Below, piece after piece: positions 14,272-51,462 of a stretch of 64,000 nt of DNA (positions are counted from its first letter, which is position 1; each line of letters begins with the position of its first letter). The stretch covers positions 1-64,000 of the IMG/VR virus record IMGVR_UViG_3300028837_000518; one strand, written 5' to 3'. A program made the position numbers and the translations under genes. This stretch comes from a virus. The notes beneath the pieces are model-generated. The model had not been told where the DNA came from. It saw nothing but the letters and a program-made list of their open reading frames with translations, and did no database searches.

Positions 14272-16428
14272 TCAGTCTGCCACTATCCCGCCGTACATGC
14301 CGCGATGGTCAATAATCGCGCCGCCAAAGACGAAGCGAATCTTCATCACAACCTTATCAGCTGAGAAGTGAGAACCAGTATTCGGAGCCTCAATAAACAA
14401 TTCGGGCTCGCGCTTACCACCCAGGAATCCGAGTTCAATAGTCGGCACCAGGCTTGGGTCAGCAATAACATACCAGTTAGTAGGGTCGGTCCAGTAGTCT
14501 ACGATGATAACGTCAAAGGTCTGATAGTGCGGGTTAGCGCGACGCGTATCTGTAATATCATCGTACTCAGAGTTGCGCAGTCGAAGAGCCTCGGACTCAA
14601 GCTCATTAGGAATGAGTACGAACTTGGGTCGAACAGCCATCGTGGTAATTGAGGAACCAAGCGCAGTCTGCGACCTCATAGTATACTTTGCGACAGACAG
14701 CGGATCAGTTGCAAACGCTGTAGTTGCTGTATTACTATGGTTGGCATGGAACAATGCAGTTGTATCGTAAGTGCACTCGCTATTATCCTTGATGAAGTCA
14801 AAGACAAACTGATACAGAGTAATCTTGGCAGCCAAAGCAAGCCTCTTAGGAATAGCTCGCAACGCCCCAAGGTTATCATTCAATGCATCTTCCCAAGTCC
14901 ACTCATCAAGCATACCTCTCTTTGACGGCGTGAATTGGGGTTCCTCTTCTGTCGGCGAAGTAGTGAACTGATAAGGTCCACCAGCTGCGACAGTAGGAAG
15001 TGCACCGTAGTAACCGATTCTCTCAGTCCTCTGTGCCTTCATATCACTCAGAGGGCGAATACTCGAAACAATCTGCTCCCACTCATTAAAGACGGGAAGC
15101 TGATAGTCCTTTACTAGAATTCGGTTCATAGTTGCACCAAGTACAGTACTCCATGAGATTGCCTCACGAAGTGGACTCAGGCCAGGGTCATAGCCAAACG
15201 ACTCACGGATGATACCATCTGCCAGTGCGCGACGGCTCGTTGCCATTGGGTCAAAGCCATTAAACATACAGTAGGCTCGCTGAATTGAGCCAAGCGGTGC
15301 CTGACCTTCGTATTCCTCGTCAAGAACCGTTGCGGTTAGAACATCAGAGAATTTATCTTTCTCATCCACCACGACTCTAACGGGATTCTTGGGCATTGTA
15401 TCCAAGATAGCTGCGTAGACGGTCTGCTCCTCAACAATCATCTCGTCTAGTTCAGTTGCCTCAAATACTCGCCCGCTAAACCGAGTAACCAATCGATCCT
15501 TGATAACTTTGGGAAGAGCAGTAGCGTCAATCTTATCCTTGGCAAGTATTGTGCACTTACCAATCTCTACGCTCTCCTTCAGGCTATCAATTTCATCACG
15601 CATTGCCACAAGAGCCTTATCCGGCTCCCTGGTTACTACAGGCTCAGTTACTACCACTGTGGGTGCCACAACAACAGGTGTCGGTATAGACTCAACAACA
15701 GGCTCAGCCGCAACGGGTTCGTCATTCGTTACTTCATCATCTGTGTCATCTACGTCCGGCACTACTACATCCTTGGCATCCCAAAGTGCCTTGAGGTCCG
15801 GCCTGGCCTCAAGAATTTCCTCCAAAGTGAGTTCCTCAAGCATGGCGATTTCACCCTCCCTTCGTAGGCTAGCCATAAGCTCTACAACTCTGCCGCCAGC
15901 AGCTCCAAAAGTAACCAAATCAACACTACGTATTGCCTTGATTACCTCTACATCCCAGTATGATTCACTACCCTCTCCTACAAATTTCTGATCACCACCA
16001 CCAAAGATGGATAATTGGGCAAAGTCGGATTTGTTACGCTCGTATGTTTCTTGCACAACCGGGGTTATAGGACTCGACTTTAGCAAGTGCAACATACCAA
16101 CGACAGCACCAGTACTTCCTACACTAACATCCCAAACAGGATCAGTAATCCACCCAGCAGCGTCTCGGAGCGAACGCTCGGGCCGCTCATGTTCTTGTCG
16201 AACTGTAGGGTGGTCAATGAATACTTTTGCGCCCTCAAATAACGGAATGCTGGCTTGCAGTACTTCAGGTTTGTACATCCGCTTATTCAAGGAAAGACCA
16301 GCCTCGATAAGAACAGCCTTCCACATGAGGCCTTCAGAACCTTCAACAGCCTCAACAAGTCGTCCCGACTCAATGAAAAGCGATTCTCTCACGCTAGGAG
16401 TAGGTAACACTTTTCCCTCAGTTACCAT
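14272..16428 (-). CDS. prohead protease-scaffold-major capsid protein fusion (Mu gpT-like capsid)
   Basis: N-terminal protease-like motifs (GLSLNKRMY, FIDHP, SVDLVTFGAAGG), acidic Pro/Val linker, C-terminal ALFHANHSN...ELGFLGG..EPEL...KIRFVFGG.IIDHRG. Confidence 0.85.
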   Translation of the reverse strand: MVTEGKVLPTPSVRESLFIESGRLVEAVEGSEGLMWKAVLIEAGLSLNKRMYKPEVLQASIPLFEGAKVFIDHPTVRQEHERPERSLRDAAGWITDPVWDVSVGSTGAVVGMLHLLKSSPITPVVQETYERNKSDFAQLSIFGGGDQKFVGEGSESYWDVEVIKAIRSVDLVTFGAAGGRVVELMASLRREGEIAMLEELTLEEILEARPDLKALWDAKDVVVPDVDDTDDEVTNDEPVAAEPVVESIPTPVVVAPTVVVTEPVVTREPDKALVAMRDEIDSLKESVEIGKCTILAKDKIDATALPKVIKDRLVTRFSGRVFEATELDEMIVEEQTVYAAILDTMPKNPVRVVVDEKDKFSDVLTATVLDEEYEGQAPLGSIQRAYCMFNGFDPMATSRRALADGIIRESFGYDPGLSPLREAISWSTVLGATMNRILVKDYQLPVFNEWEQIVSSIRPLSDMKAQRTERIGYYGALPTVAAGGPYQFTTSPTEEEPQFTPSKRGMLDEWTWEDALNDNLGALRAIPKRLALAAKITLYQFVFDFIKDNSECTYDTTALFHANHSNTATTAFATDPLSVAKYTMRSQTALGSSITTMAVRPKFVLIPNELESEALRLRNSEYDDITDTRRANPHYQTFDVIIVDYWTDPTNWYVIADPSLVPTIELGFLGGKREPELFIEAPNTGSHFSADKVVMKIRFVFGGAIIDHRGMYGGIVAD

Positions 16429-29117: not shown

Positions 29118-31555
29118 CACCGGGTGATGGGGAGTGTTGGAAGGCTCCCTATCTCTGCTTATTACTATTTCAGTAATCGGTAGAGATGGCGAGCCTTCAA
29201 GGAGAGAAGACATGCGTGCAATTATTGCGCGAGGAGGGTAAAGACATGGAGGAACTTTTCGAGGCTATCTATCTTTGCGAGATGACGGTCGAGAACCAGC
29301 ATGGCTGTGCCATTCCCCTCACTGTCTGGCTAGACCCCACAACTGGCGGGGTATTCGCAGTGGAGAGACAGCGTTGCTCTCATAACCAAGTAGTGTCGCC
29401 GTACTCTGACAAGTCTCTATGCCTGATAATATAGGCATACATGAAGTAGGAGGTGACAAGTGCAGCAAAGCAACAAGAGGGTTAGACTTGGCACTAACAA
29501 CTGGCCATGTTGTACCAGTTGTGGCAGGTCAATGACGCCTGCTGATTACCTTGTGAACTCCGTGTGTCGAAAGTGCTGTCGCACTCAACACAAGAAAGTA
29601 GCGAGGCAGACGAGGTGAAGAGAGTCTTGTTAGTGCCAGAGCCCGGTTATCGTGCGGAGCGCACGGACTGGGAGGTGGTGCAGAATGCGGTGGCTTGCCT
29701 ATCTCGATGTGTGGGTGAGCTTCGTCAGTTACATGCTCTACTTGACTCAGATTATACCGAACTAGATCAACATGTAGTGGCGCAATTGATAACAAGTGTG
29801 GCGGTATTGCGCGAGCGAACTTGTGGAGTAGCGCGCGATCTTGGCTTTAGAGGTGAGTTATAACGTAGTGCGAGTACGACTGTGCATAACCTTTGGGTGC
29901 CGTACCTCCTTTGGGCAAACTGTCTGTAACTGTCTGTTTGTAAACTAATTATATTTACCAAGGGTTATGTGCAGTCGTGGTTGCACTACTCAACACGAGG
30001 GGAGGGAATTATGCCGCGCAATACTCATCGCTACACGCCACCACATATCTCGCCCGAGCTTTACCACGTTGCTAAGGTTGCAGATATAACCAACCCAAGC
30101 GTTCCGGGTTTTTACACTCTACACGGAGTGTACTGGCACAAGGCGACCATGCCCAAAACTTGGGTTTTTGGTCCACCTGAGTGCCAGGGTGGGTGTAAGC
30201 ACACTGATGGTCATGCGTGTGTGCAAGTAATGCACCGGGGTGAATTATGCACTATTAGCCATGACAACGTGCACTCCTACTACGTGCGGGAGAAAGAATG
30301 CTAAAACCTATCGCGCTACCCGAGACCGAGCTGGTTGCGTGGGCGCATAACCTTGCAGTGAGTGTAGTAAGAAGTGAAGAGAACGAGCCCGATCCAAGTG
30401 CTCGCGCAGTAGTTATTCACTTCGCCGATGCTGGACCAGTTGCCGCCGAGGTTATCTTTGCCAAGCCTCACCCACTCACCCTCCTCCTGGCACCACACGT
30501 ACCAACACCGATCATCAACAAGGCTCGGTGTAGTGGTGATAGGAGAATGCAGGACCTCATACTAACGCAAAATGAGGTTGTGCGGTACAGAACCTACTTT
30601 GAAGTAGCCAGTGGTGACTGGAGCTTTCAACTAGAACGACCTTGGAGGTAAGTATGTGTCTACTATGTGGCAGTAATCATGTAGCTGGTCCTGATGAGCA
30701 GCATGGAGTTTCTGTCTGTCGAGTCTGTGGGGCATGGTGGGGTGGCAATAGTCTACCATTTGACCCAGATGACCGAGACTGTCAGATTGTTGCCGCAATC
30801 AACCGTGGCGCAATACCAGTACGTGTTGACTCGGTAAAGTATCCGGAGGTGCCAGTATGACGCGCGAGAAGGATGGACACTCACCTATCGTGGGACACGT
30901 GGGCAAAACCTGTCGTCAGTGTTTTCATGCGCGTGTACCATATCGTATGGTAAACACCGGGATAATATGTTGTCGGAATGAACTAAGTGACCACTACTGT
31001 CATGTTATGTATTATGGTCACCCAACTTGCTCCGCCCGTATACTCAAGTCAACAAAAGAGTAGGTGGATGTCGGAGCAATACTAAGGGAGCTTAGAAATG
31101 AGTAAGACAAGAGCGGCACTAACAGTCATTGCAGTTTTTCTTGGTTTACTTGCGATTGGGTGGGGGTACTGCTGGCTATGCGAGCACTTCTTGCCCGGCA
31201 ATATTCTCCTTAGTTTCTTTGCTCTCTGTATACTGGGAGCATGTCTCGGTATTCTTTGCATTGAACTAAGAAACTGTTAGAGCATGACAAGAAATGAGGA
31301 AAAGGGAGGAAACTGAATGGGTATAAAACTCAAATCATCCCTCATTGCCACAGTAGTATCGCTGGTGTTCGCAGTAATACTGGCTGGTATGATGCGCTGT
31401 GTTAGGTGGGAAGAGATGATCGCAGCTGAGGTTATCAGTATTAGCAAACTTTACATCAGTCTTGTCGTGTGTGGAGTTTGCTTCTGGTTTATTATCAGGT
31501 CGGCTATACTGGTCGACTATAATGATGCTGAGTACTGGAGGCAATGCAGAGGTGA

Positions 31556-32263
31556 GTGGGGCAACACAGAAAGTTATTCAGTAACACAAGTTATCATCAG
31601 TTAGACCGATACAGTACCATTAGAAGGGACAGTATGATACCGGCAAGTGATTGGAACAACCCATTTATTGTTTACGCCTACCTCCTTACAGAGGAGATTG
31701 TTGTACGAGAGTGTGATTATCCCGTTGTGATAAAGATAAGTAACAACCGTTTTTCATGTCATTATGACTTTCTCCTCCCTGAGGGTTATCATGTGATTAC
31801 TCTCAGTAGACGAGACATACGTGTTTGTGTGACAGCTGGTTTCTATGACTATGATTGCGTTATGAAAGTAGTTCGGCAGTGGTATGGCGATACAAGACCT
31901 ACCCATCTTCTAGCCAACTACCTCATGGTAATTCATGAGTGCGCACATGCTGTTCAAGTAGAGAGTGGTGATCGTCGTCCCGGTTACTGTCATAATACAT
32001 CATCACGTTTTCCACTGCACTTTGCGAGACTACTCACTACATATCCGTTTGCACGCTATGAACGTAAGTTTCTGAATGCCAAACTTCAAGACCTAGCAAG
32101 ACCTCCATACACACATAATGACTATGGAGACTACTGTGCACACTGTCTGAAGTTAAATACCGTGGAAGATGTAGCCAGTGGCTACTGCTCACATTGCGGT
32201 AGTTTTTGGGAGGAGGGTTATGTTGAAGAAGGTGAAGGCTATAGTAGCGTCCGGGCCATATGA
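31556..32263 (+). CDS. SprT-like zinc metallopeptidase domain plus Zn ribbon
   Basis: IHECAH motif, downstream His, C-terminal CxxC...CxxC; likely start ATG 31634. Confidence 0.55.
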   Translation: MGQHRKLFSNTSYHQLDRYSTIRRDSMIPASDWNNPFIVYAYLLTEEIVVRECDYPVVIKISNNRFSCHYDFLLPEGYHVITLSRRDIRVCVTAGFYDYDCVMKVVRQWYGDTRPTHLLANYLMVIHECAHAVQVESGDRRPGYCHNTSSRFPLHFARLLTTYPFARYERKFLNAKLQDLARPPYTHNDYGDYCAHCLKLNTVEDVASGYCSHCGSFWEEGYVEEGEGYSSVRAI

Positions 32264-33982
32264 GGGTCAAGCCGTTACTATAACCCGCGCAGGTACAACT
32301 CTTTGCGTCCGTGGTCTCTTTGTCCAAGGTTGGTTGGGCAAGAAGAAAAAACCTGACCTACTTATACCAATTACAACGTTACGCATTGAGTATTGCTCTG
32401 CAAACGAGCCACGAAGTCCTGGCAGTATCGCTGCGGGCGGTATGGCTGGGACACTTCTCGGTGGTCCAGTAGTGGGGATTTTACTTGCATCTGGACTGGC
32501 TGCACAGCGTATCAAGAGAGACTTTGTATTACTTCTCTACGATACAGTTGGGCCGGAGGCAGGAAAACTATGTCTGAGTAGTAAGAATCCCAAACGGTTC
32601 TATCAGCAACTCATGGAGGTGGTACAGTGAGTACAGCACAAGTTATCATTCTGGTTGTAGTAGCGATCTACATCATCGGTAACTTTGTTGCGACGACAAT
32701 ACCCAGACAACCACCAGAGAGTATCAGTGGAAATGGATGACAGAGAACTAGACGATGTATGGTCAGCAGTTGTAGTAATATTCTTTGTAGTAGTTGTTGT
32801 GTGTCTGAGAGTAGACGATGTACTAAACAGTAATAGTACTATTGCAATTGCCTGGCTTGTTTCGCGAGTATGTGTAGTCGCTCTTGGCTTACTAGTTGTC
32901 TGGAAACTCATAAGGCGGTGATGATGCTTGATCCAGGAAATCTTCCTCCTCTTCAAAAGGGTGTAATTTACATTTTACCGGGTGGACCGTGGGAGTTCGG
33001 AATGGGCAAGCGTTACTGCCTACGATATGTTGATACAAAGATGTTGGTAATTGGTCCATTATGTATAGTAGCCGGTGATCGCTACCTAGAAGAAATGAAA
33101 AGATACTGGCATAACGGTCGGCGAACCGGCTCGATAGGTGAACACCGCCTTTGGTTTTACCGAACTACTCCGGGTGCTCGTAGAAGACTTATTGACTTGC
33201 TTCACGAGAGCCGAGGGATACGTTATGCCGTTGTAGAGCGAGTGAAGATGTTACAGCAGCGTAAAGATGCCAGAAGAATAGTGGAGGAAATCTAGTGAAG
33301 ATCAGGCTGTATGACACTCGTACAAAGAATATACTCTGGTCTGGCAACACCAAGACTTTTCCAGTTCCCAGTGTCGGTGACCTAATACAGGTGCCTGATG
33401 AGAGTAAGCGAGTGGATGGTACGGTGCCATCAATGGGCTTAGTAGTAAAGGCCAGAATGTTCATTCTGAATAACCAAGACATCACTGGAATGAAGATTCT
33501 AGTTCAGGAAAAGTTAGCTGATACATTTATCCTAGACGAGGGCCTGTACTGTGCCGAGTGCGGTATGCCCGAGATACTGTCAAGTGATTGGCGACCAGAC
33601 CCGGACTCCGAGGGTGGCTTTGCACGCACTGGAATCTGCGTGAGTTGCCTCACTGCGTGGACAGAGGTATTTCGTTTGGTAGACTACCATAGTGTCCGTA
33701 AAATCCCGAGGACACAGGTTGATGCATATGTAAAGGGGAGTATGCTACCAGAAGACCAGGAGGGAAGTCTCGATGAGGAGGTTGAAAACCTTTGGGGTGG
33801 CTAGTGGCAGACCAAAAGAGCTACTGGCACTATCTGCCGTTGCAACAGTCGCCATAGGTCTTGTCCTGCGATTTACCGTAAGTCATCCTCTACCAGTTGT
33901 GGTTGGCCTCGGGTTTGGTATAGTATTTCTGGCGGGAATGGCATACGGAATAGCCGTCACTTACTACACAGGGAGGTAAGCC

Positions 33983-35185
33983 TTGTACTTTGTACGATCA
34001 CTCGAAGAAGATCGGGAGATTTGGGGTGATGATAGTGCAGCTACAGATGAGGCTACATGGATAAACCTCATCACGCAGCAACTCAACAGCCGGCGAGAAG
34101 CAATTTTATCAGATGAGCGCAATCATCGCGCTAGACTAGAGCAGTTGATGGTCACTACGCGCGACCTGGTAAATAATCTCTCCAATAACCCGGCACTCTA
34201 TGTAACCGCTGCCGGCATAAGTGATCTGGCCGAGAGTGAAGTAGCACTGCTAAGACGAGTTGGTATCAACCACTTGCTTGACATCACTCTGAGTGGTTCA
34301 CACATGATTATGCGTCCGCTAGAGAATATGGGGTGGCAGACTACGAACTTTCGCAATAGAATGCGAGCGCATAGTGCATCAGTCGACCTATTTACTGGTC
34401 GGGTCTACATTGGTGACACACCCCTTGTGCATTGCAATGAGGAGCTACAAAACGTCGTACTTGCGCTGATTCTTTCAGGGCACTTGGCCATTGTACCTTA
34501 TCTGGTAATGGGAATCATAGAGTTAGCAGCCGCACAGTGCCTTGAGGAACCAATAGCTGAAGATATTGGTGATAGCTCCGGATATACCGAAGATGTTGTC
34601 GCTGGTATTCATAGTAGCGACTTCACGCACAGAGATGAAAGTATGTCCAGGTTTCATGAGGTTATCAGTACGACAACCACGACGCAACGTCGGTTACGCG
34701 AGAGTGCAATTGCGCTGGCTAATTTAGAGGCGCAGGCCAATAACGGTGAAGGACTCAGAGAAGAGCTTCAGAGACTGATTAGATTACCTAGTATACACAA
34801 GATATTGGTACGACCACATCCACGGCGAAACACTCCACGCGTGGTGGTTTATACCGAACCCCTCACTATCGCTGAGTGGGAAATTGGCCGGTACGTTATT
34901 GATATAGAGATGGGTGACTGGATACTGATACGCAACCTAGACTATGCGTTTCAGCAACAGTTTCCGCATCCACACGTACACGAGAATGGTAAACCGTGCT
35001 TTGGCCGACTAAGTGAGAGAATGCGTGAGGCGATGGCGCAAGGTAATATGCGCTCACTGATAATTGGTTCAGTGCGTTTGGTAGAATCTTACAATGCCAG
35101 AGACGCGTACTGCCCCATGCGACGCATTGCAGAACTCACGGAAGAAGACATCGGGCGAATCTACTGGACAAGGAGTTACTACTAA
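33983..35185 (+). CDS. prokaryotic E2 (ubiquitin-conjugating fold) protein with coiled-coil extension
   Basis: C-terminal PHPHVHENGKPCFG matches the E2 HPN/HPH...C signature with the catalytic Cys; RBS GGGAGG. Confidence 0.75.
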   Translation: MYFVRSLEEDREIWGDDSAATDEATWINLITQQLNSRREAILSDERNHRARLEQLMVTTRDLVNNLSNNPALYVTAAGISDLAESEVALLRRVGINHLLDITLSGSHMIMRPLENMGWQTTNFRNRMRAHSASVDLFTGRVYIGDTPLVHCNEELQNVVLALILSGHLAIVPYLVMGIIELAAAQCLEEPIAEDIGDSSGYTEDVVAGIHSSDFTHRDESMSRFHEVISTTTTTQRRLRESAIALANLEAQANNGEGLREELQRLIRLPSIHKILVRPHPRRNTPRVVVYTEPLTIAEWEIGRYVIDIEMGDWILIRNLDYAFQQQFPHPHVHENGKPCFGRLSERMREAMAQGNMRSLIIGSVRLVESYNARDAYCPMRRIAELTEEDIGRIYWTRSYY

Positions 35186-35186
35186 G

Positions 35187-35993
35187 ATGACGAAGGAGAA
35201 GTTTACCCCGGTACCCACCAGCAATACTAGCGTGCCAACAGTCAAGCACAAGAAGGTAGTGGTCGCCAAGAAGAAAATTACAGTTACCCAAGATAGTCGG
35301 CCAACGAAGTTTGAGAACCCTATGCTGGCAATGCTACCAGACTTCAAAACGAGACTTGATGCAATAGTTGACCAAGCACCAGTTGAAGTAAGTGGGTTTG
35401 GCAGCATGACTATTCATGAGAGCCGAGCAAGTAATGGTTCGGCACAGCATCTCATTGTGCCGCGCGAGTTGTTTGTTCTCGATCAAACTACAACATCTGG
35501 TTCAGCTGACATAGAACAAGATGCTGTCGGTAACTTCTTCGAGGACTGGGTAACCGAGGGTCGAGATGTAAAAGAGTTACGTGTGTGGTGGCACAGTCAT
35601 GGTAGAGGGGCAAAGCCAGTACCTTCGGCCACAGACTGGTCTACAATTACTCGCTCCTTTGGTCGTGTGCCCTGGTATATTATGCTTATTACCAACAAGG
35701 ACCGTCAATATACAGCATACCTCGTCTTGACTAAGCCGTTTCGGGTAAAGGTTGAGATTGAAGTTGGTTTGTTTGTTGACGCGGCAATACGCGACTGGGC
35801 AAAAAACGAAGTAGAAAAGCATGTTACAACCACAGCTGGATACAAGTATCCAACGGGCAGAAGGTGGGATGGTCGCTTGGCACGTTTTGTTGACGTTGAA
35901 GAGCCTGGTGCGAAACAGGCACAAAGTAAACAGGGAGTTTTGCTACCCAAGGGATCACCTGCGGATAACGAGTGGGAGCGGTGGTCATGGTAG
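35187..35993 (+). CDS. JAB/MPN+ (JAMM) metalloisopeptidase
   Basis: EVSGFG...WWHSHG...PSATD is the E...HxH...S..D JAMM motif; start ATG 35187 after AGGAG. Confidence 0.85.
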   Translation: MTKEKFTPVPTSNTSVPTVKHKKVVVAKKKITVTQDSRPTKFENPMLAMLPDFKTRLDAIVDQAPVEVSGFGSMTIHESRASNGSAQHLIVPRELFVLDQTTTSGSADIEQDAVGNFFEDWVTEGRDVKELRVWWHSHGRGAKPVPSATDWSTITRSFGRVPWYIMLITNKDRQYTAYLVLTKPFRVKVEIEVGLFVDAAIRDWAKNEVEKHVTTTAGYKYPTGRRWDGRLARFVDVEEPGAKQAQSKQGVLLPKGSPADNEWERWSW

Positions 35994-36658
35994 ATGACAC
36001 CCGACAGTTAGATATTCTTTCGCCCAAGTTTCTACAGGATCGCCATGTTGACCTAATTGGTTGCGGTAGTGTTGGTAGTATGACTGCCTTTGTCCTCTCA
36101 AAAATGGTAGCAGGCGAGGAGGACTTCTCGGTTAGGCTGATTGATGGTGATATAGTAGGGGATGTCAACATTCGACCAAGCCTGTATACACCTGTTGATA
36201 TAGGTATATGTAAGGTCCTTGCGTTACAGCGCCTACTCCTCTACCTATCCAATCTTTCTACCACAGTCTGTAGTGAGTTTGTTGGTCCCGACAACTACCC
36301 TAGTCTCAAAGACATTGTAGTTGTTTCAGTAGATACTATGGCTGTGCGGAAAGATATATGGGAAAACTGTATCGGGCTATACAACCCTCACTGGCTGATA
36401 GATGCCAGAATGGGTGCCGAGATTTGCACTATCGTTACCGTTGATCTTAGTAGTGATGAGCAACGCGAGCGGTACGACGACGAGTTGTTTACTGACGATG
36501 AGGCTAGGCAGTTACCCTGCACTGCACGAGCAATTGCCTACAACACCGCATACATCGCGGCACTCATCGTTAGAACTATAAAGCGTATTCTAGTCGGAGA
36601 GGAGGTGGACTATCAAGTAGATTCAAGTCTAAAGAATCTTGTTATGTTACTTACTTAG
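35972..36658 (+). CDS. ThiF/E1-like ubiquitin-activating enzyme
   Basis: N-terminal RQ, IGCGSVGS, DGDIV..VN, K.LAL, VD...R, IDARMG, candidate catalytic Cys in LPCT; true start probably 35981 or 35987. Confidence 0.88.
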   Translation: MGAVVMVDDTRQLDILSPKFLQDRHVDLIGCGSVGSMTAFVLSKMVAGEEDFSVRLIDGDIVGDVNIRPSLYTPVDIGICKVLALQRLLLYLSNLSTTVCSEFVGPDNYPSLKDIVVVSVDTMAVRKDIWENCIGLYNPHWLIDARMGAEICTIVTVDLSSDEQRERYDDELFTDDEARQLPCTARAIAYNTAYIAALIVRTIKRILVGEEVDYQVDSSLKNLVMLLT

Positions 36659-36706
36659 CAAATCGTTGATTGTAAAGCTATTCCTAACCTACAAAAGGAG
36701 AGTACA

Positions 36707-36976
36707 GTGTCAGCTGACAAGAGAACTATCCAGCTCAACCCGGACGATGAAGTTGAAGTTCTTGTTCCTTCGGGAGCCAAGGTCACCATCATCACCATGG
36801 ACGACACCCGCGAAGTCGACCCCGGCATCACCGTCGCCGAGGCACTCAACGCGGCCGGTATCGAAGTGCAGTCCGATGAGGTCGTGCGAGTCAACAAGCA
36901 GGCGTGCAGTGACGCGGATCTCACCCTCGACGCCGGTGATGTTCTGTCCGTGGTCCCTCGCGTTCGCGCGGGGTAG
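36707..36976 (+). CDS. ubiquitin-like (beta-grasp, MoaD/ThiS-like) protein ending in Gly
   Basis: GITVAEAL..AGI...VRVN...LTLDAGDVLSVVPRVRAG-stop; RBS AAAGGAG. Confidence 0.82.
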   Translation: MSADKRTIQLNPDDEVEVLVPSGAKVTIITMDDTREVDPGITVAEALNAAGIEVQSDEVVRVNKQACSDADLTLDAGDVLSVVPRVRAG

Positions 36977-37020
36977 TCCTGTAGTAGCTTAGTCTTGGCT
37001 AAGTTAGAGCAGTAGGTCGC

Positions 37021-37052
37021 GGGGTGGTGCAGCCAAGGTTCTGCATCACCCC
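37021..37052 (+). terminator. strong hairpin after the Ubl gene (terminator or 3' stabiliser)
   Basis: GGGGTGGTGCAG/CTGCATCACCCC 12-bp stem; weak U tail. Confidence 0.5.
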
Positions 37053-37075
37053 TTAGACACCCTGGAGGAGTAGAA

Positions 37076-38131: not shown

Positions 38132-41100
38132 CGGCTTGGGGCACTTTACCAGTTTGGGGTGTGTCCAAGAGTATAGCTGATGAGTGGATTATATCTTGCG
38201 ATAATACTTACTAAAGGTACCTATGGACCCCTACCGCCAACCGAACCGCAAAACTCTGATTGGATTCGGTTACTGCGGTATCAGTGCGTCTTTGACTTCT
38301 GTAGAGCGTATTGTTTACATGACTGGTTGGCCGAGGAACTACGAAGTAACACGGAGTAATAACATGACAGAGTTCTCTATGTCATTCACTAAGCACTGTG
38401 ATTATTGCGGTGAAGAGATAGTTAGAGAAGTAGCTCAACCAACCAATCCTGTAAGCTGGTTTCAAGTACGACTACCTATTCAGGTATCAATGCCTGACCG
38501 CTTACATAACTTCTGTAGAGTCTCGTGTTTACTTCAGTGGGTTGCACAACAGCTAAGTAATGAGAATAGGAAAGCAAGCAGTAGTGAAGATAAGCAGTTG
38601 AATAACCTAGCAATAGACTTGCTTGAGATGGCAAAGTATGCAGCACACCATGCAATCCATAACGATATAGGTGATGGATACTGTCTACTTAGTTATTGCC
38701 CACTTCACTACCCGGCACAGCGGCGTTACCGTGGCTCACTTCTACTGGAGGGCAGTAAAGATGGCTAACTACTACACTGAGTTCTCACAGATCATCGAGT
38801 GTCAAAGTGACGAGCAGCGAGCGTTTCTTCGAGATGCCTTCGATCAGTTAAGTCAGAATGGCAGCGATACTAGCGTTGCTTATGCAGTAGACAGAGACGA
38901 AGGTGGGCACCCTAAAGATATTTGGGTTTACTCAGATACCGTTGACTATAGTAGTATAGAATCGGTAGTTGATGTGGTTTGTAGGTTTCAGAGGAAGTTT
39001 GCCATCCCAACACCTTGGCGACTAACTTGGGCTTTTACGTGCGAGAAACCGCGCGTCGGTGCGTTTAGTGGTGGTGGTGTGCTTTGCTTGAAAGGTGAGA
39101 GCTACTGGGTAAATGCCGATACTTGGCTCAATAACAAGTTGAAAGAACTTGTAAGAGCCTCTATGGAATACCGCACACTTTCTGTAGAATCGAAGAGAAT
39201 GCTCGTCAATCTTTGCCCGGAAGATAGTATAGTTGAGTTGCGATTAGGTACTGTGGAAGAAGGTTCTTGGTGTTACCAAGCAGGTTCACAAGGTGTAATA
39301 TGTCCTCATAGACATACAGTACGTTACCTTATAGAACACCAACTTCTCCAACAGGTTTTCCGCTGTGTAGGAATGCCCATTGGGTATACACTGACACCCT
39401 TAGGTAGATTGTTAGCCAATTGCCTACCGTCACCACACTATCGAGGATGAGGAGATTCCTAATGTCTCTAAGATTTCTCGCAAGTTTATGTTCACAACGA
39501 GTGTACTGTGAGTATGACGGTCGCATTATAGGTAAGGTTTCACCGGGGCATATCATGCCTAACTCACAGAACCTTTCAGTAGTAGCAATAGTCTACCAAG
39601 ATGCCTTCAGAACACGTTACTTCTGTCACCCTGGATGTCTCAAGAAGTGGCTGGCAGACTCGAAGGTTGGTGTATACAGAACTCCCAGTGATGAGGGGTG
39701 ATATGATAATAATTACTTTGTTTGTTTTACTGGTAGTACTGGTGATTGCGTTTGCACTTGCAGACGATATAGGAGTGCAGGCAAGAAGGCGTGAACTACG
39801 CAAGCGCATCAGTGAGATTGACACTCAACTTGACTATATTGATAGTGAGATTGAATCGCGTGCGAAAGAAATTGAAGCGTGCAAAAGAGAGCAAGAGAGA
39901 GCACTTGAGTATCTTGAGCGTATGCTTGACTACTGAGTATAGGAGGTTCAGGAGTGGATGGGCACTTGGAAATTCGTGAAGCAGATGCACTTGCGGGTAG
40001 TTGTAACTTCTGCTCTAGGATGGCAGCTAGAGTAGTTTCAGTGATGGGGAGACATTCGGGACCCAATATGCTAGTTCGGTTCTGCCAGAAGTGCTTGGAT
40101 GAACTGGTTGCTTATAGTAATACTCCTGTACCAGTAAGTCCTATTTTCCAGAGGATCAGTTCAAAGAGGGTGGCTCAGTTGAAAGCCGCAGCTGAGGAGA
40201 TTCACGAACACTTCTTAGCCTTGAAAGAAGAGGAGGCAAGTATGGCAAGGAAAGAGTTGAAAGGGTACTTGGTCAAGGTTAGACTCAATGTTATGGTGTT
40301 TACCAATGACGAGAAAGGGGCTGCAAGAATAGCCCTAACCAAGTTCAAAGAACAGATGACCTACAACGGGTGGGATAACCACCCACTAGCTACGAGTGCT
40401 ATCCCCGGCACATTCTACGAGGATGGCGAGGACACCTTTGTTGACAGTGTTGAGGAACTGGTTATATCATCAGAGTGGCAAGGTATCAATGGTGTTTGGG
40501 CTAAACGAGAAGAAGAGGAACAAGGAGGAAGTCGTGAGGAGTAACTCCGTCGCCCCGAGTTTGAGGAACTGATGAATAGGTGATTATTTTACTTCTCCCC
40601 ATTCTTGGTATGTTAGCGATACTGGTAGTTGAGGATGTGAGGCGGTGTATACGCCAGAAGAACAGTCACAGTATTATTAGCAACCTAAGGAGAAGAAACA
40701 GGTGAGTCAATCTATACCCGTGCGTGATGTAACTGGTTCGACGCTAGAGGATTTACTTCTTAGTGCAAAGGAAGTTTTATTCAGGTGGGTAAAAGATGCG
40801 GAGCAAGATGAGTGGGGTAATGCAGCAAATACTGCGATAGACCAGATTACCAGGGCAGTTGCACCCACAGAAACCAACCACATTCTACGCATTTTAGTTG
40901 CCAACCCAACACTGGCATGTCGAGGAGCTATATGGTATGAACACAAGGGAATGCCAACAGTACACGACTTAGCCAGAGTAGTAATCTATGAATACATCGC
41001 GGAGATGTTGTGGGCTGAATACCATAAAGCGGTAGAGGAGAGAATATTATGACATCGCGTTTCGTGGCCACGGTACAAATTCTACTTGATGCAGAGAACT

Positions 41101-42529: not shown

Positions 42530-43498
42530 GTGCCTTTGGATAACCTACAAGAAATCCTTGCGAACCTAGCAATAGCACAAGGGACCTCAGAACCCAAGCC
42601 CAAAGTTGTATCTATCCGTGCCAGAAAGGTATTTCGTCCGGCTGGCTGGTCTGAGTTTGTTGGTCATAAAGATGTAGTGCGCATACTACGTCAGGCACGA
42701 CAGTCAGCAGAGTCAAGAATGGAAACACTTCGACCCGTACTGCTTTGGGGACCACCCGGTTGTGGCAAGACTACAGTTGCTCGTCTACTGGCAGGTAGTG
42801 CGGGGCTACGGGAACTATCAGGCCCCACTATTGACCCAATAGAACTAGCCAATGCTCTCCAAGAGTTGTATGGTGCGAGATTTGTTCTTATTGATGAGAT
42901 ACATGGGTTGGCTAGACCCGCCCAAGAAGTTCTTTACCCCGTTCTGGATGACGGTATAGTTCACTGGGCAGGTCTAGCTACAGAGATAACCACTTCCCTC
43001 ATTGGTGCTACAACCGAGCTTGGAAAGTTAGTCAAACCTCTTCGCGATAGATTCTCTCTATCACTCTACATTGGTCATTATAACGATGAAGAGATGACGA
43101 AGATTGCTGGACTCATGGCAAGGTCTCTCAAGCTGACTATACAACAACATGGTGCAAGAACAGTAGTAAAGTGGGCGCGAGGAACGCCGCGGTGGGCTTT
43201 ACGAATCATAGAGCGTGTTCGTGACTTTTCAACTTCTATGAGTAGACGGTCGGTAAGAAAAGCAGTTGAGGACTTAGGGTTTGATACTACTGGTCTACTG
43301 CCCGAAGAGCGGGTATATCTAACAGCACTATATCTACTTGGTGGTCGCTCGGGTATATCAAACCTTTCTGCATCCATGCAACAAGATAACAACTCAGTTA
43401 GAATAGTAGAGGCCTACCTGATTCGTGCTGGTTACGTTACAATTACATCACGCGGACGAACACTCACCGATAAAGGTGTTAGATACATTGACAAGTAA
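42530..43498 (+). CDS. ruvB: Holliday junction branch migration ATPase RuvB
   Basis: FRP..W.EFVG, GPPGCGKTT, IDEIH, GATT..G.L.KPLRDRF, RGTPR, E.YLI..G...T.RGR. Confidence 0.9.
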   Translation: MPLDNLQEILANLAIAQGTSEPKPKVVSIRARKVFRPAGWSEFVGHKDVVRILRQARQSAESRMETLRPVLLWGPPGCGKTTVARLLAGSAGLRELSGPTIDPIELANALQELYGARFVLIDEIHGLARPAQEVLYPVLDDGIVHWAGLATEITTSLIGATTELGKLVKPLRDRFSLSLYIGHYNDEEMTKIAGLMARSLKLTIQQHGARTVVKWARGTPRWALRIIERVRDFSTSMSRRSVRKAVEDLGFDTTGLLPEERVYLTALYLLGGRSGISNLSASMQQDNNSVRIVEAYLIRAGYVTITSRGRTLTDKGVRYIDK

Positions 43499-45151: not shown

Positions 45152-45214
45152 CGTCTGGGTCGCCGATTGCTGGTTACCACTTAAATGTTCCAGTAATCAC
45201 GAACTTATCCGGCG
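45152..45214 (+). ncRNA. Y RNA-like RNA 1
   Basis: Lower stem CGTCTGGGT/ATCCGGCG (one bulge), GGTCG..CTTATC, upper stem GATTGCTGG/CCAGTAATC, then TTACC. Confidence 0.65.
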
Positions 45215-45322
45215 CTTACTTTAAACACCACACCGAGCTAGTATTTCTAAAGAAACCGTGCGATCTTTGATTCTAAGATCAAAGATTCTACAACTTCTAA
45301 GTGACAGTCTTGGTGTTGGTAC

Positions 45323-45423
45323 GGGTTGGGTCGAAGTATGTCGGTTATCATACATAGTAATAGCATGGGTAAGAGTACGGCTCTACCATGCCCAAACTCG
45401 ACATACATTCCCTTATCCAATCC
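45323..45423 (+). ncRNA. Y RNA-like RNA 2
   Basis: GGGTTGGGT/ATCCAATCC, CGAA, GTATGTCG/CGACATAC, GTTATC, internal hairpin. Confidence 0.8.
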
Positions 45424-45440
45424 ATAATACTTAAATTGTT

Positions 45441-45499
45441 GGCTAGGTCGAAGTATGCTGGTTATCCTCTATGATCCCGGCTACAATCCTTATCTAGCC
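45441..45499 (+). ncRNA. Y RNA-like RNA 3 (minimal, 59 nt)
   Basis: GGCTAGGT/ATCTAGCC, CGAA, GTATGCTGG/CCGGCTAC, TTATC loop. Confidence 0.8.
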
Positions 45500-45502
45500 T
45501 TT

Positions 45503-45575
45503 AGGTAAATAGCTCAGTTGGTAGAGCACTTCTTTTACAAAGAAGAGATCGCAGGTTCGAGTCCTGCTTTGCCTA
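45503..45575 (+). tRNA. tRNA-Val(TAC)
   Basis: AGGTAAA/TTTGCCT acceptor, CTTCT-TTTACAA-AGAAG anticodon arm, GCAGG-TTCGAGT-CCTGC; followed by CTA, not CCA. Confidence 0.92.
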
Positions 45576-45586
45576 CTAAAACTTAA

Positions 45587-45693
45587 TAGATTAGGTCGAA
45601 GAGTATCGGTTATCAAGGCAAGCCGAGAGGTTGGTCTGGTGAGCCAGACTTAACATCGGTTATGAAAACGATCTCACAAACTTATCTAATCTA
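45587..45693 (+). ncRNA. Y RNA-like RNA 4
   Basis: TAGATTAGGT/ATCTAATCTA, CGAA, GAGTATCG/CGATCTC, GTTATC, long internal hairpin. Confidence 0.8.
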
Positions 45694-45696
45694 CAT

Positions 45697-45768
45697 GGGG
45701 GCGTAGCTTAACGGGAAAGCACCTCTTTTGCAAGGAGGGTACTGGAGGTTCAATTCCTCCCGTCTCCA
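45697..45768 (+). tRNA. tRNA-Ala(TGC)
   Basis: GGGGGCG/CGTCTCC with G3:U70, CCTCT-TTTGCAA-GGAGG, GGAGG-TTCAATT-CCTCC. Confidence 0.92.
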
Positions 45769-45771
45769 CCT

Positions 45772-45834
45772 CTTGGGTCGAATGCATTGGGTTATTCAAG
45801 GTGAAAACTTCCCAACGCAGTTAACTTATCCAAG
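45772..45834 (+). ncRNA. Y RNA-like RNA 5
   Basis: CTTGGGT/ATCCAAG, CGAA, TGCATTGGG/CCCAACGCA (one mismatch), TTATT, CTTATC. Confidence 0.78.
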
Positions 45835-45843
45835 TAATAATAT

Positions 45844-45916
45844 GCGGGAGTAGCTCAGTTGGTAGAGCATCGCCTTGCCAGGGCGAGGGTCACGAGTTCG
45901 AGTCTCGTTTTCCGCT
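45844..45916 (+). tRNA. tRNA-Gly(GCC)
   Basis: GCGGGAG/TTTCCGC, TCGCC-TTGCCAG-GGCGA, ACGAG-TTCGAGT-CTCGT, U73. Confidence 0.92.
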
Positions 45917-45925
45917 TATGTTGTT

Positions 45926-46004
45926 AAGCCGGGTCGAGTTCAGTGGGTTATTGTGTATAATAATCCTTGTGTGTGTTTTCCCACTGGAAAAGTTAACCTG
46001 GCTT
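45926..46004 (+). ncRNA. Y RNA-like RNA 6
   Basis: AAGCCGGGT/ACCTGGCTT, CGAG, TTCAGTGGG/CCCACTGGA, TTATT. Confidence 0.72.
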
Positions 46005-46051
46005 TTATCTCTCTGGGACGCTTTTCCATCCACCACTACTAGGAGGTTATA

Positions 46052-47752
46052 ATGAGCAATTACGGCCAACACTTCTCTACACAGCAAACCGTCCAGACCG
46101 AGCCCATCCCAGGAAAAGATATGGGAGAAAACTTGGCTGGTGGTTATGCATTCAAGATTGATAAGTGGGCAAGACTTCAGCGTTTTCTTATCCTCGGCGC
46201 GGAAGGCACCTACTATGCTAGCGGTCAAGCAATGACCATTGATAATGCTAACGTAGTAGTGGATTGTATTCGGGAAGATGGCCGGCGAGTGGTAGATAGT
46301 ATTGTTACTACCTCACAAGAGGGTCGTGCGCCCAAGAATGACTCAGCACTATTTGCCCTTCTCATGTGTATGACACCAGACTTTGCCAATCTTGCAACTC
46401 GCCAAGCAGCATTTGCTGCTCTTCCTGCAGTTGCACGAATTGGTACGCACCTATTTAAGTTCTGCTCTGAGGTTGACTCAATGCGGGGTTGGGGACGTGG
46501 GCTACGACGCGCACTCTCTAGGTGGTACAACTCTAAAGCTCCTGCTCGCCTTGCATACCAAGTTGTAAAGTATCAGCAGCGGCATGGCTGGACCCACAGA
46601 GATGTATTGCGCAAGGCTCACCCAGTCCCCTTATCGGATGCGCACAAGATTATCTATCACTACATAACTCAAAAGGAGCTACCATGTAGTCTCGCGCAGA
46701 CAGAGGGTGGTGTGGATATGTTGTATGCCTTCGAGTCTATCAAACGGGCCGAGAGTGTTAATCAGGCCACACAACTAATCCGTGAATTCAGACTTCCTCG
46801 CGAGGCAGTGCCAACTCGATTCTTGAATGATAGTGCTATTTGGCAAGCACTACTAGAATCTATGCCTATGACCGCCATGATTCGCAACCTTGCCAAGATG
46901 ACCAGTATTGGTCTACTTGCTCCCTTGTCGTTCGCAGCTAACTTTGTAGTAAAGCAATTAGGTAATGCAGATTATCTGAGACGCGCACGCGTTCACCCAT
47001 TCTCTGTATTTCTTGCGTTGCGAACCTACGCGATGGGTTGCGGTATTCGTGGTAAGCTTCGGTGGGAACCAGTACCTGCCATAGTAGATGCGCTTGACAA
47101 GGCTTTTTACTTGTGTTTTGATAATGTTGAGCCAACTGGAAAGCGTATAGTAATCGGCGTTGATGTCTCGGGTAGCATGAGTGCGCCGATACTCGCTGAT
47201 CCTAATACACAATTCATGGTACCGGGGCCACCATCAGTCCTGGAGGCCGCTGCTGCAATTGCGTTAGTTACTAACGCTGTGGAACCCAATAGTACTATAG
47301 TAGCATTCTCGCATGATATAGTACCAATCACTATTACACCGCGCCAGCGGATTGATAACCTTTGCAACGAGCTACGCGGCCTACCAATGGGCAATACAGA
47401 CTGTGCTCTACCCATGCTTTGGGCGCTAGGTTATGCGCCCGATGTACGTGGTGGTATTCACAGATGGTTCCGTCACCCCTGCGATTATAAGAAAGTTAGG
47501 GACAACGTTATCGAGGCTGATGTTTTCATAGTAATTACCGACAACGAGACTTGGTTTGGCAAGATACACCCTGTGCAGGCACTAAACAAGTATCGAAAGC
47601 AAACAGGTATTGACGCCAAGCTAGTTGTTCTCGCTATGACCTCTACCGGATTTTCTATAGCTGACCCCAATGATTCTGGAATGCTTGATATTTGTGGTAT
47701 GGATAGCGCTGTTCCCACACTTATCTCTGACTTTATAAGTGGCAGAGTTTAG
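46052..47752 (+). CDS. rsr: Ro60/Rsr RNA-binding protein (TROVE plus vWA domains)
   Basis: NLAGGYAF...LQRFLILG.EGTYY, GWGRGLRRA, YQVVKYQQRHGWTHRD, MPMTAMIRNL, RVHP, MIDAS DVSGSM, TDCALPM, TDNETW, SIADPND.GMLD; RBS AGGAGG. Confidence 0.95.
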   Translation: MSNYGQHFSTQQTVQTEPIPGKDMGENLAGGYAFKIDKWARLQRFLILGAEGTYYASGQAMTIDNANVVVDCIREDGRRVVDSIVTTSQEGRAPKNDSALFALLMCMTPDFANLATRQAAFAALPAVARIGTHLFKFCSEVDSMRGWGRGLRRALSRWYNSKAPARLAYQVVKYQQRHGWTHRDVLRKAHPVPLSDAHKIIYHYITQKELPCSLAQTEGGVDMLYAFESIKRAESVNQATQLIREFRLPREAVPTRFLNDSAIWQALLESMPMTAMIRNLAKMTSIGLLAPLSFAANFVVKQLGNADYLRRARVHPFSVFLALRTYAMGCGIRGKLRWEPVPAIVDALDKAFYLCFDNVEPTGKRIVIGVDVSGSMSAPILADPNTQFMVPGPPSVLEAAAAIALVTNAVEPNSTIVAFSHDIVPITITPRQRIDNLCNELRGLPMGNTDCALPMLWALGYAPDVRGGIHRWFRHPCDYKKVRDNVIEADVFIVITDNETWFGKIHPVQALNKYRKQTGIDAKLVVLAMTSTGFSIADPNDSGMLDICGMDSAVPTLISDFISGRV

Positions 47753-50835: not shown

Positions 50836-51462
50836 ATGCATCATTGGGGACAAGAAGGTGTTGAGTTACCAGTACCGGCGACTAAGCTGGTTAGTGCCGA
50901 GGCCAGTACACCAAAACTGACTGTAGAAACAGTAGATAATCACGTGTACTTTTATGCTACTGTTAACAGTGATCGCTGTTTAGCCTTAGTTCGTACCATT
51001 CGCGAACTTGATGGAAAACTTAGGAACGAACATGCCTCACGTGCATTGCCGGCAGAGCACCCATTAACACCTATTTGGTTGCATGTGAATAGCGATGGGG
51101 GCAGTGTGTTTGACGCGCTTGGTGTTGCCGATCAACTGAAAAGTATTAAGACACCAATATTCTCTGTAGTAGAGGGGTGTGCAGCAAGCTCTGCGACTCT
51201 CCTCAGTGTCCCTTGTACGAAGCGGTTTATTACTTCATCTTCTTTCATGCTTATTCATCAAGTTTCCAGCATTATGTGGGGAACATACGAGCAGTTTAAA
51301 GATCAGATGAAGGTACTTGACATGATCATGCGTCAACTTGTCAACTTTTACTCGACTCACACAAAGCTGGAGCCATTAAAGCTCGAGGAGCTTCTCAAGC
51401 GTGATTCGTGGTTTGCCGCACAGCAATGTGTGGATATAGGGTTAGTGGACGCTATTCTATAG
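50836..51462 (+). CDS. clpP: ClpP-like serine protease
   Basis: VNSDGGSV, GCAASSA (Ser), MLIHQ (His), RDSWF.A..C...GLVD. Confidence 0.85.
   Translation: MHHWGQEGVELPVPATKLVSAEASTPKLTVETVDNHVYFYATVNSDRCLALVRTIRELDGKLRNEHASRALPAEHPLTPIWLHVNSDGGSVFDALGVADQLKSIKTPIFSVVEGCAASSATLLSVPCTKRFITSSSFMLIHQVSSIMWGTYEQFKDQMKVLDMIMRQLVNFYSTHTKLEPLKLEELLKRDSWFAAQQCVDIGLVDAIL

Follow-up and report, generated by a model that had tools for sequence, protein, structure and literature searches.

A four-gene cassette of an uncultured virus that probably encodes a ubiquitin-like protein conjugation cascade

In prokaryotes, the conjugation of ubiquitin-like proteins (Ubls) is currently seen as a form of bacterial anti-phage defence, exemplified by Bil, by Cap2 of CBASS (cyclic-oligonucleotide-based signalling systems directed against phages) and by Bub. 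Bil comprises the BilABCD types I and II, which correspond to operon classes 6d/6c of Iyer et al. 2006 (PMC1779556; Chambers et al., preprint 10.1101/2023.09.26.559546). A eukaryote-like operon encoding ubiquitin, E1, E2, a small RING E3 and Rpn11 occurs in Caldiarchaeum subterraneum and in some bacteria (PMC3082918, PMC5654768), and phages lambda and T1 possess a Ubl (TAPI) together with a JAB + NlpC/P60 protein (TAPK; PMC1779556). Here we describe four consecutive genes of an uncultured virus (IMG/VR record IMGVR_UViG_3300028837_000518), which lie at positions 33983-36976 of the stretch of DNA that was analysed, i.e., the first 64 kb of the 109,319-bp record (hereafter the window). They encode, in this order, a protein with an E2 domain (g1), a JAB metalloprotease (g2), an E1 (g3) and a Ubl (g4), and it is likely that they form a virus-encoded Ubl-protein conjugation cascade, which would be produced as a single unit of four genes in the early or middle phase of infection. 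With 144-bp direct terminal repeats and a completeness rated at 100%, the record represents a complete viral genome of 109,319 bp. In the literature we found no description of a phage E1-E2-JAB-Ubl operon, although a prior one in the work of the Aravind laboratory (PMC2732565, PMC2701696) is possible.

The four open reading frames (ORFs) are co-directional on the plus strand and occupy 33983-35185 (400 aa), 35094-35993 (299 aa), 35972-36658 and 36707-36976 (89 aa). An initial annotation of the window had listed four tightly spaced genes with intact catalytic motifs, and all ORFs as well as every motif that it quoted are indeed present. The gene for g1 (33983..35185) starts with TTG behind GGGAGG. 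For g2 the most likely start is the ATG at 35187, one base past the g1 stop and preceded by the Shine-Dalgarno sequence AAGGAG, since the longest ORF, which starts at 35094, would share 92 nt with g1 and its additional residues are unconserved; the resulting gene (35187..35993) encodes 268 aa. The longest ORF of g3 begins with a GTG at 35972, and the most likely start is the ATG at 35987, which overlaps the g2 stop and yields a protein of 223 aa (35987..36658). The gene for g4 (36707..36976) has a GTG start behind AAGGAG. With these refined starts the junctions measure +1 nt, -7 nt (an overlap) and +48 nt, Shine-Dalgarno sequences are present, and the genes are thus tightly coupled. A hairpin had also been reported downstream of the Ubl gene, and two stable ones were found directly after its stop (36979..37058, + strand), with a dG of -41.2 kcal/mol and a z of -3.83 for the pair; none of 200 shuffles was as stable. 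They have no U tract, a simple terminator scan did not call them a terminator, and they may mark a 3' end or serve in processing or stabilisation.

The C-terminal ~150 residues of g1 are assigned to a UBC/E2 domain because fold, motif and profile agree. The protein g1 has no match in Pfam, NCBIfam, PADLOC or PHROG, none of the Pfam families UQ_con and Prok-E2_A-E is matched at E values up to 1, so that g1 falls in none of them at the sequence level, a word-indexed homologue search returned nothing but g1 itself, and pattern scans of IMG/VR using the single g1 and g3 sequences returned nothing. A phmmer search of 1.84 billion representatives did yield 80 remote relatives, all of which align to residues ~215-390 of g1, and of the 59 members of this family that were scanned none has a Pfam domain in the E2 region (E up to 0.01). 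The protein carries the motif H329-P-H-V-x3-G-x-P-C339, in which H329-P-H331 forms the HPH and Cys339 is the candidate catalytic residue, and the consensus of the family is HPHVxxxGxPCxGN. H329-P330 is nearly invariant (at least 90%), at least 90% of the 80 members have a His (H331) in place of the Asn of the HPN motif, and downstream only the Cys, conserved in all 80 remote homologues, and the Gly that follows it are invariant.

The structural evidence points in the same direction. The N-terminal ~245 aa of g1 are predicted to be helical or coiled-coil with a poorly predicted stretch, and the UBC/E2 domain follows at aa ~248-393; in the AlphaFold2 model, for which a homologue alignment served as input, residues ~250-390 have a predicted local distance difference test score (pLDDT) >90. 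The 50 best Foldseek matches of this model in the PDB are all ubiquitin-conjugating enzymes. VIA-align gave a Z of 7.6, a value that is moderate on its own (Z <8), at a root-mean-square deviation of 3.7 A over 122 residues that span the whole UBC core, with 423 chains at Z >=5. A full-length profile of g1 (A3) compared with the PDB was swamped by coiled-coil matches of the N-terminal half, and a profile of the domain only (A7, 39 sequences) was therefore used; its positions 41-161 match UbcH7/UBE2L3 with an E value of 2.4e-4, and the alignment places HPh on HPN and the invariant Cys on the catalytic Cys86. Both features of the UBC superfamily, the alpha/beta fold with an N-terminal helix, a meander of four strands and C-terminal helices, and a Cys after an HPN-type motif at canonical spacing, are thus found in g1. 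The initial annotation had made its reading depend on a UBC fold in the product of the gene at 33983, and Foldseek, VIA-align and the UbcH7 profile match all indicate that such a fold is present. In the ESM Atlas the E2 domain falls among unnamed clusters, in which viruses account for 50-82% of the few members that have a taxon record.

By its sequence g3 is a minimal ThiF-type E1. It matches Pfam ThiF at 4.7e-10 (39.5 bits, cut-off 28.1) and contains G30-C-G-S-V-G35, D58-G-D60 and C183 within an invariant PCT. Its 121 homologues of ~220 aa are all single-domain proteins, in which R11 (the Arg finger), GxGxxG (G30/32/35), K44, DxD, N66, K81, D121, R126, R146 and C183-T184 are invariant. A Rossmann-type adenylation domain, GxGxxG, an Arg finger and an Mg-binding Asp, the features of the ThiF/MoeB/E1 superfamily, thus all occur in g3. 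The candidate thioester Cys is C183, the single invariant Cys of the family, located 62 residues past the Mg-binding Asp; in ThiF, Cys184 is 57 residues past Asp127. The family profile matches ThiF at 3e-17 and, about equally, Uba1 and Uba5 at ~1e-16, and BubCD is a distant match (1.6e-8 vs 3e-17 for ThiF). In g3 no rhodanese domain or fusion, no ubiquitin-fold domain and no CxxC zinc site were found.

As judged from its zinc-site residues and family profile, g2 is a JAMM/MPN+ metalloprotease of the Rpn11-like type. Its JAMM residues E98, H167-S-H169, S178 and D181 (numbering of the 299-aa ORF) are present, E98, H167, H169, S178 and D181 are invariant in an alignment (A4) of 30 g2 sequences, and the family shows the JAMM/MPN+ zinc-site pattern E...HxH-x7-S-xx-D. 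As a single sequence g2 matches Pfam Prok-JAB at an E value of 1.2e-3 and 19.2 bits, under the 25-bit cut-off. In the PDB the best match of the family profile is Rpn11/PSMD14 (3e-10), followed by the Rpn11 homologue of Caldiarchaeum (8e-7), CSN5 and Pyrococcus JAMM1.

The product of the last gene, g4, is a beta-grasp Ubl. It ends in RVRAG-stop, i.e., with an Ala-Gly terminus and no tail, and scores 25.7 bits against Pfam ThiS (cut-off 22.5). Its AlphaFold2 model (pLDDT 85) has a beta-grasp fold, for which Foldseek matched Mth1743, TtuB, MoaD, Caldiarchaeum ubiquitin, SAMP1, ubiquitin and SUMO. In an alignment of 35 homologues no column but that of the C-terminal Gly is nearly invariant. Most relatives end in GG plus 0-6 further residues, like pro-ubiquitins and BilA. 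Tailed Ubls were encountered in 34 of 50 loci that bear a JAB and in 3 of 8 that lack one, a hand count that indicates a trend only. One IMG/VR locus (L024:6936-7352) encodes a tandem di-Ubl, the first unit of which ends in FKG-G at the junction and the last in FKGG plus one residue.

In the conjugation cascade that we consider likely, the E1, probably a homodimer like ThiF, MoeB and Uba5, would use ATP to adenylate the C-terminal Gly89 of the Ubl, which would move to Cys183 of the E1 as a thioester, then be handed to Cys339 in the UBC domain of g1 and finally be joined to an amino group of a target protein of either host or phage. For E1 binding and/or target choice the best candidate would be the N-terminal half of g1, which is long and helical, as a separate E3 was not seen. 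The Rpn11-like JAB is predicted to act in Ubl maturation and/or in the removal of the Ubl from conjugates: it would trim the pro-Ubl tails, as most relatives need, and reverse conjugates. Trimming is unneeded for the Ubl of the window, which ends at Gly already. Several observations weigh against such a cascade. The E2 domain of g1 carries a His at the position of the HPN Asn, a residue that aids isopeptide formation in canonical E2s, and the N-terminal half of g1 is poorly modelled by AlphaFold2. The E1 has neither a ubiquitin-fold domain nor a separate Cys domain, which leaves the recruitment of the E2 by g3 unexplained. In the JAB of the window the spacer between HxH and S comprises 8 residues, where 7 is the norm among its relatives. 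A ThiS-type Ubl and a minimal E1 are what sulfur-carrier systems typically have, and the best fold matches of g4 include TtuB and MoaD. Lastly, no E3 or target was identified, and Pfam scans revealed no RING E3 in the cassette or among its neighbours.

A likeness to Bil and to Cap2/Cap3 of CBASS had been proposed in the initial annotation; it holds for the chemistry but not for the features that define these families. Like Bil, the cassette consists of four separate genes (Ubl, E2, JAB, E1) with a predicted E1-to-E2-to-target chemistry, and its Ubl family has a conserved Gly and, in many members, a short tail that is expected to be trimmed by the JAB. However, the E2 of Bil (BilB) has no His upstream of its Cys and a conserved His downstream, whereas the E2 of the cassette has HPH upstream and no conserved His downstream. 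BilD contains an inactive and an active adenylation domain and a helical Cys insertion; the E1 of the cassette is a single 223-aa domain. Furthermore, its E2 fits no PADLOC model, its JAB is Rpn11-like and its carriers are mainly viruses. We therefore rejected membership in Bil, as the features that define the Bil E2 and E1 are missing. With type II CBASS Cap2/Cap3 the cassette shares the E1 adenylation fold, the E2 Cys relay and the JAB eraser, and the PADLOC models of Cap2 weakly match only the nucleotide-binding N-terminus of g3 (3e-7, ~70/590 positions). Cap2 is an E2-E1 fusion, whereas here E2 and E1 are encoded by separate genes with the JAB gene between them; the cassette comprises no CD-NTase, and its substrate would be a dedicated beta-grasp Ubl. 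In addition, the E2 of Cap2 is described as Atg3/Atg10-like, whereas the one studied here aligns to the canonical UbcH7. Assignment to CBASS Cap2/Cap3 was likewise rejected: there is no fusion and no CD-NTase, and the neighbouring genes have no Pfam match. Bub (6E) was discarded as well, as the four genes are separate, without Ubl-E2 or JAB-E1 fusions, and the Ubl has a single domain rather than several.

Outside the defence systems, the operon of Caldiarchaeum resembles the cassette in the E2 motif, which is of the canonical type and has His-Pro upstream of the Cys, and its Rpn11 homologue and its ubiquitin are matched by our JAB profile and Ubl model, respectively (see above). It differs in that no RING E3 was found in the cassette, the E1 of which is approximately half the size and without a ubiquitin-fold domain, the Ubl is by sequence nearer to ThiS than to ubiquitin, and the E2 has an N-terminal extension of ~245 aa. 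The archaeal SAMP/UbaA/HvJAMM1 and the Thermus TtuB/TtuC systems have in common with it a minimal ThiF/MoeB-type E1, a ThiS/MoaD-like Ubl ending in Gly and a JAMM protease; the best fold matches of the Ubl include SAMP1 and TtuB, and JAMM1 is matched by the JAB profile. However, the SAMP and TtuB systems are devoid of an E2 and double as sulfur carriers, whereas the cassette has a conserved E2 and no sulfur-relay genes. TAPI and TAPK of lambda and T1 (PMC1779556) also represent a phage beta-grasp protein with a C-terminal Gly and a JAB neighbour, but this tail-assembly pair lies in the tail module and has no E1 or E2, in contrast to the cassette, which has both and is located in a non-structural region.

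The distribution of the E1 family was established by an alignment-based scan of IMG/VR, from which 80 loci were kept for context. At least 241 IMG/VR contigs encode the family. A survey of phage databases for the same gene order had been proposed in the initial annotation; in 76 of the 80 loci the JAB gene is directly upstream of that of the E1, and an HPHV-type E2 is present too in 14 of the 80. A Ubl is detectable in 13 of these 14 loci, its gene being placed after the E1, as in the window, or before the E2. In the remaining loci, which we take to be marine, a Ubl-GG gene and a protein of 320-740 aa precede the JAB, and hhalign relates the core of this protein to the catalytic region of the E2 (probability 92%, E 7e-7). 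One locus (L004:1952-4810) contains two tandem E2-like genes ahead of JAB-E1-Ubl. A further 55 loci were encountered in GTDB genomes, all of them bacterial metagenome-assembled genomes (MAGs) of Anaerolineae and other Chloroflexota, Methylomirabilota, Patescibacteria, Planctomycetota and others, with E2 and/or Ubl adjoining the E1 in ~50 of the 55. Clustering of the ORFs of 134 loci revealed that only the E1, the JAB and two E2 types are broadly shared. The cassette is a conserved module, and a chance association is excluded because the same gene set is conserved in >100 independent loci. The Methylomirabilota copies (L094-L110 and similar) are E2-E1-Ubl without JAB, most of their Ubls end exactly in GG, and they are surrounded by genes of a housekeeping type (methyltransferase, BFN nuclease, NTPase). 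Other cellular copies are located on large contigs beside ordinary metabolic genes, some with plainly non-phage neighbours, and therefore the module is not exclusively viral. Among GenBank phages a DNA search with the whole cassette and tblastn with two JAB proteins yielded no match. Hidden Markov models (HMMs) of the cassette did reveal an E2-like domain (1.1e-10) in an 892-aa protein beside ThiF in the cultured Xanthomonas phage PhiXhv-15 (L002:1283-4657) and a JAB domain (3.6e-16) beside ThiF in the crAss-like Dulem virus 41 (L001:2943-4651). The deposited labels of PhiXhv-15 read 'hypothetical protein' and 'thiamine biosynthesis protein', and both the E2-like domain and the JAB domain of Dulem virus 41 had been missed.

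A tree of the E1, obtained with a quick IQ-TREE search (treekit), separates a purely viral clade (51 rows) from a mixed clade (51 MAG rows, 15 viral rows and the window) and implies at least seven switches between viruses and cells. The E1 of the window groups with three copies from Anaerolineae MAGs (SH-aLRT 97), on long branches, and these relatives share the N-terminal extension of its Ubl and an xAG or xGG end. In two of the Anaerolineae loci (L087:1651-6974, L089:1296-10160) the order is a Prok-JAB protein, a proteasome-ATPase-like AAA protein, E2, JAB, E1 and Ubl, followed in L089 by an unknown 444-aa protein and a Kelch-AAA ATPase. The AAA protein is homologous to the Mpa/ARC-like proteasome ATPases (TIGR03689, 3e-39), and the gene content of this operon hints at a tag-and-unfold pathway in bacteria without a Pup system. 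No homologue of this Mpa-like protein was found in the phage genome.

As to its function, the cassette may be a widespread pro-viral tool of tailed phages, which would use their own E2 of the canonical type, Rpn11-like deubiquitinase, minimal E1 and Gly-ended Ubl to tag host or phage proteins during infection, a tentative view to which we assign somewhat less than an even chance. It could also serve in defence or superinfection exclusion, with the same chemistry, if it were an immune module similar to Bil, which the phage carries or has captured from its host and which tags the proteins of competing phages. Every bacterial E1/E2/JAB/Ubl operon that has been characterised functions in defence against phages (PMC11601603), the E1 of the window groups with the Anaerolineae copies in the half of the tree where viral and cellular copies are intermixed, and the Planctomycete copies occur near a large serine recombinase. 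However, the 51 sequences of the other E1 clade are exclusively viral, and in the loci sampled from it the cassette is located just upstream of a protein of ~180 aa with an acidic ...D(D/G)(L/I)PF C-terminus, which, from this C-terminal end alone, we read as similar to single-stranded DNA-binding protein (SSB). Moreover, the window cassette is situated among the early/middle genes of a virus with terminal repeats, PADLOC has no model for g1 or g4 and matches g2 weakly, and several cellular copies have neighbours of a housekeeping type and no defence islands. An immune function thus seems rather unlikely.

A role as a sulfur carrier would require no conjugates at all: the E1 would adenylate a ThiS-like protein that is converted to a thiocarboxylate and delivers sulfur to a tRNA, a DNA base or a cofactor, while the JAB matures the carrier. 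The score of g4 above the Pfam cut-off for ThiS, the presence of TtuB, MoaD and ThiS among its best fold matches, ThiF as the top weak NCBIfam match of g3, and the tRNAs and radical-SAM enzymes elsewhere in the genome are consistent with this. It is nevertheless disfavoured, and we give it only a slim chance, because the module contains an E2 with an invariant Cys and the genome no sulfur-relay genes. A UBC-type E2 of this kind, useless for sulfur transfer, accompanies the E1 in >100 loci, the E1 is not fused to a rhodanese, and the nearest matches of the JAB are deubiquitinases (Rpn11 and CSN5). The initial annotation had noticed that thiamine, molybdopterin and tRNA-thiolation genes are missing nearby; this applies to the entire 109-kb genome, in which no rhodanese, MoaE, ThiG, PP-loop ATPase or thiolase (PF01171) or cysteine desulfurase (PF00266) was found, and hence neither donor nor acceptor partners of a sulfur carrier, although host enzymes could substitute for them. 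Counter-defence, finally, has a similarly slim chance. The JAB would here strip the conjugates made by Bil- or CBASS-type systems of the host, or the phage Ubl, E1 and E2 would act as decoys that jam a Ubl pathway of the host. Host Ubl defences that tag phage tail proteins do exist, and since the closest relatives of the cassette occur in Anaerolineae, a plausible host group, host and phage may have cross-reacting systems. However, a lone protease would suffice for this purpose, whereas catalytic residues are retained in all four components, which co-vary as a module.

The genomic setting agrees with the claim of the initial annotation that a phage carries writer, eraser and tag among its non-structural genes: the virus is complete, and the cassette lies inside a block of such genes. 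The terminase, portal, protease-capsid fusion and tail genes occupy 1 to 23.6 kb on the minus strand, with the capsid gene (window 14272-16428, minus strand) already supplying a protease domain of its own as an N-terminal fusion to the major capsid protein. From ~24 kb onwards the non-structural genes run rightward and include five tRNAs, Ro60, RuvB, Dam and ClpP, and beyond the window the same genome encodes an RNA ligase, radical-SAM enzymes and NrdD. The genes next to the cassette have no Pfam match and no homologue in any other cassette locus; on both flanks (window 30857-33804 and 38223-40544) many small proteins with CxxC pairs (zinc-ribbon-like), likewise without Pfam match, are encoded. 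The gene at window 42530-43498 encodes a full-length RuvB homologue (RuvB_N, AAA lid and RuvB_C domains) that PHROGs labels as clamp loader. Shine-Dalgarno sequences, RuvB and the exclusively bacterial origin of all cellular relatives of the cassette point to a bacterium as the host. A Nidhogg-type virus of Asgard archaea, known for Ro60, RNA ligase and ThiF (preprint 10.1101/2021.07.29.454249), was considered for the genome and rejected because there is one ThiF gene instead of three, Shine-Dalgarno sites are strong, a RuvB homologue is present and cassette relatives occur only in bacterial MAGs.

Two further genes of the window had to be considered as partners of the cassette. The free-standing ClpP-family protease in the non-structural region (window 50836-51462; PF00574, 4e-28) had been put forward as a possible downstream reader of the tag. 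It is a true ClpP, but the reader idea is unsupported, as ClpP is absent from all 5 other large cassette-bearing phage genomes compared, four of which are >=94% complete; moreover, its gene is 14 kb away. The Ro60 (TROVE) gene (window 45152-47752), 8-9 kb downstream of the Ubl cassette, was rejected as a conserved partner, as just 1 of the 5 other cassette-bearing phages has a TROVE gene. Elsewhere in the genome, an Rnl1-type RNA ligase with a Hint/intein module (genome 67942-69558; L084:3942-5555) and a B12-binding radical-SAM enzyme split by an intein with a LAGLIDADG endonuclease (genome 79441-81813; L084:15441-17810) were observed.

As far as we have searched, the novelty lies in the protein families, the minimal architecture and the predominance of viral carriers, while the chemistry of the predicted cascade is familiar. 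The cassette would represent a compact four-protein system for the transfer from E1 to E2 that operates without a ubiquitin-fold domain or an E3. Distant versions occur beside ThiF in cultured Xanthomonas/Erwinia jumbo phages and crAss-like phages, and genetics is therefore feasible. A mainly phage-borne cassette with intact catalytic residues would reverse the picture of prokaryotic Ubl conjugation as defence only. If the pro-viral reading is true, it would be the prokaryotic-virus counterpart of the exploitation of ubiquitin by eukaryotic viruses, Ubl conjugation in bacteria would serve as a weapon for phages as well as for their hosts, and phages would form a large reservoir of eukaryote-like E2 and Rpn11 proteins, with a bearing on the origin of the ubiquitin system.

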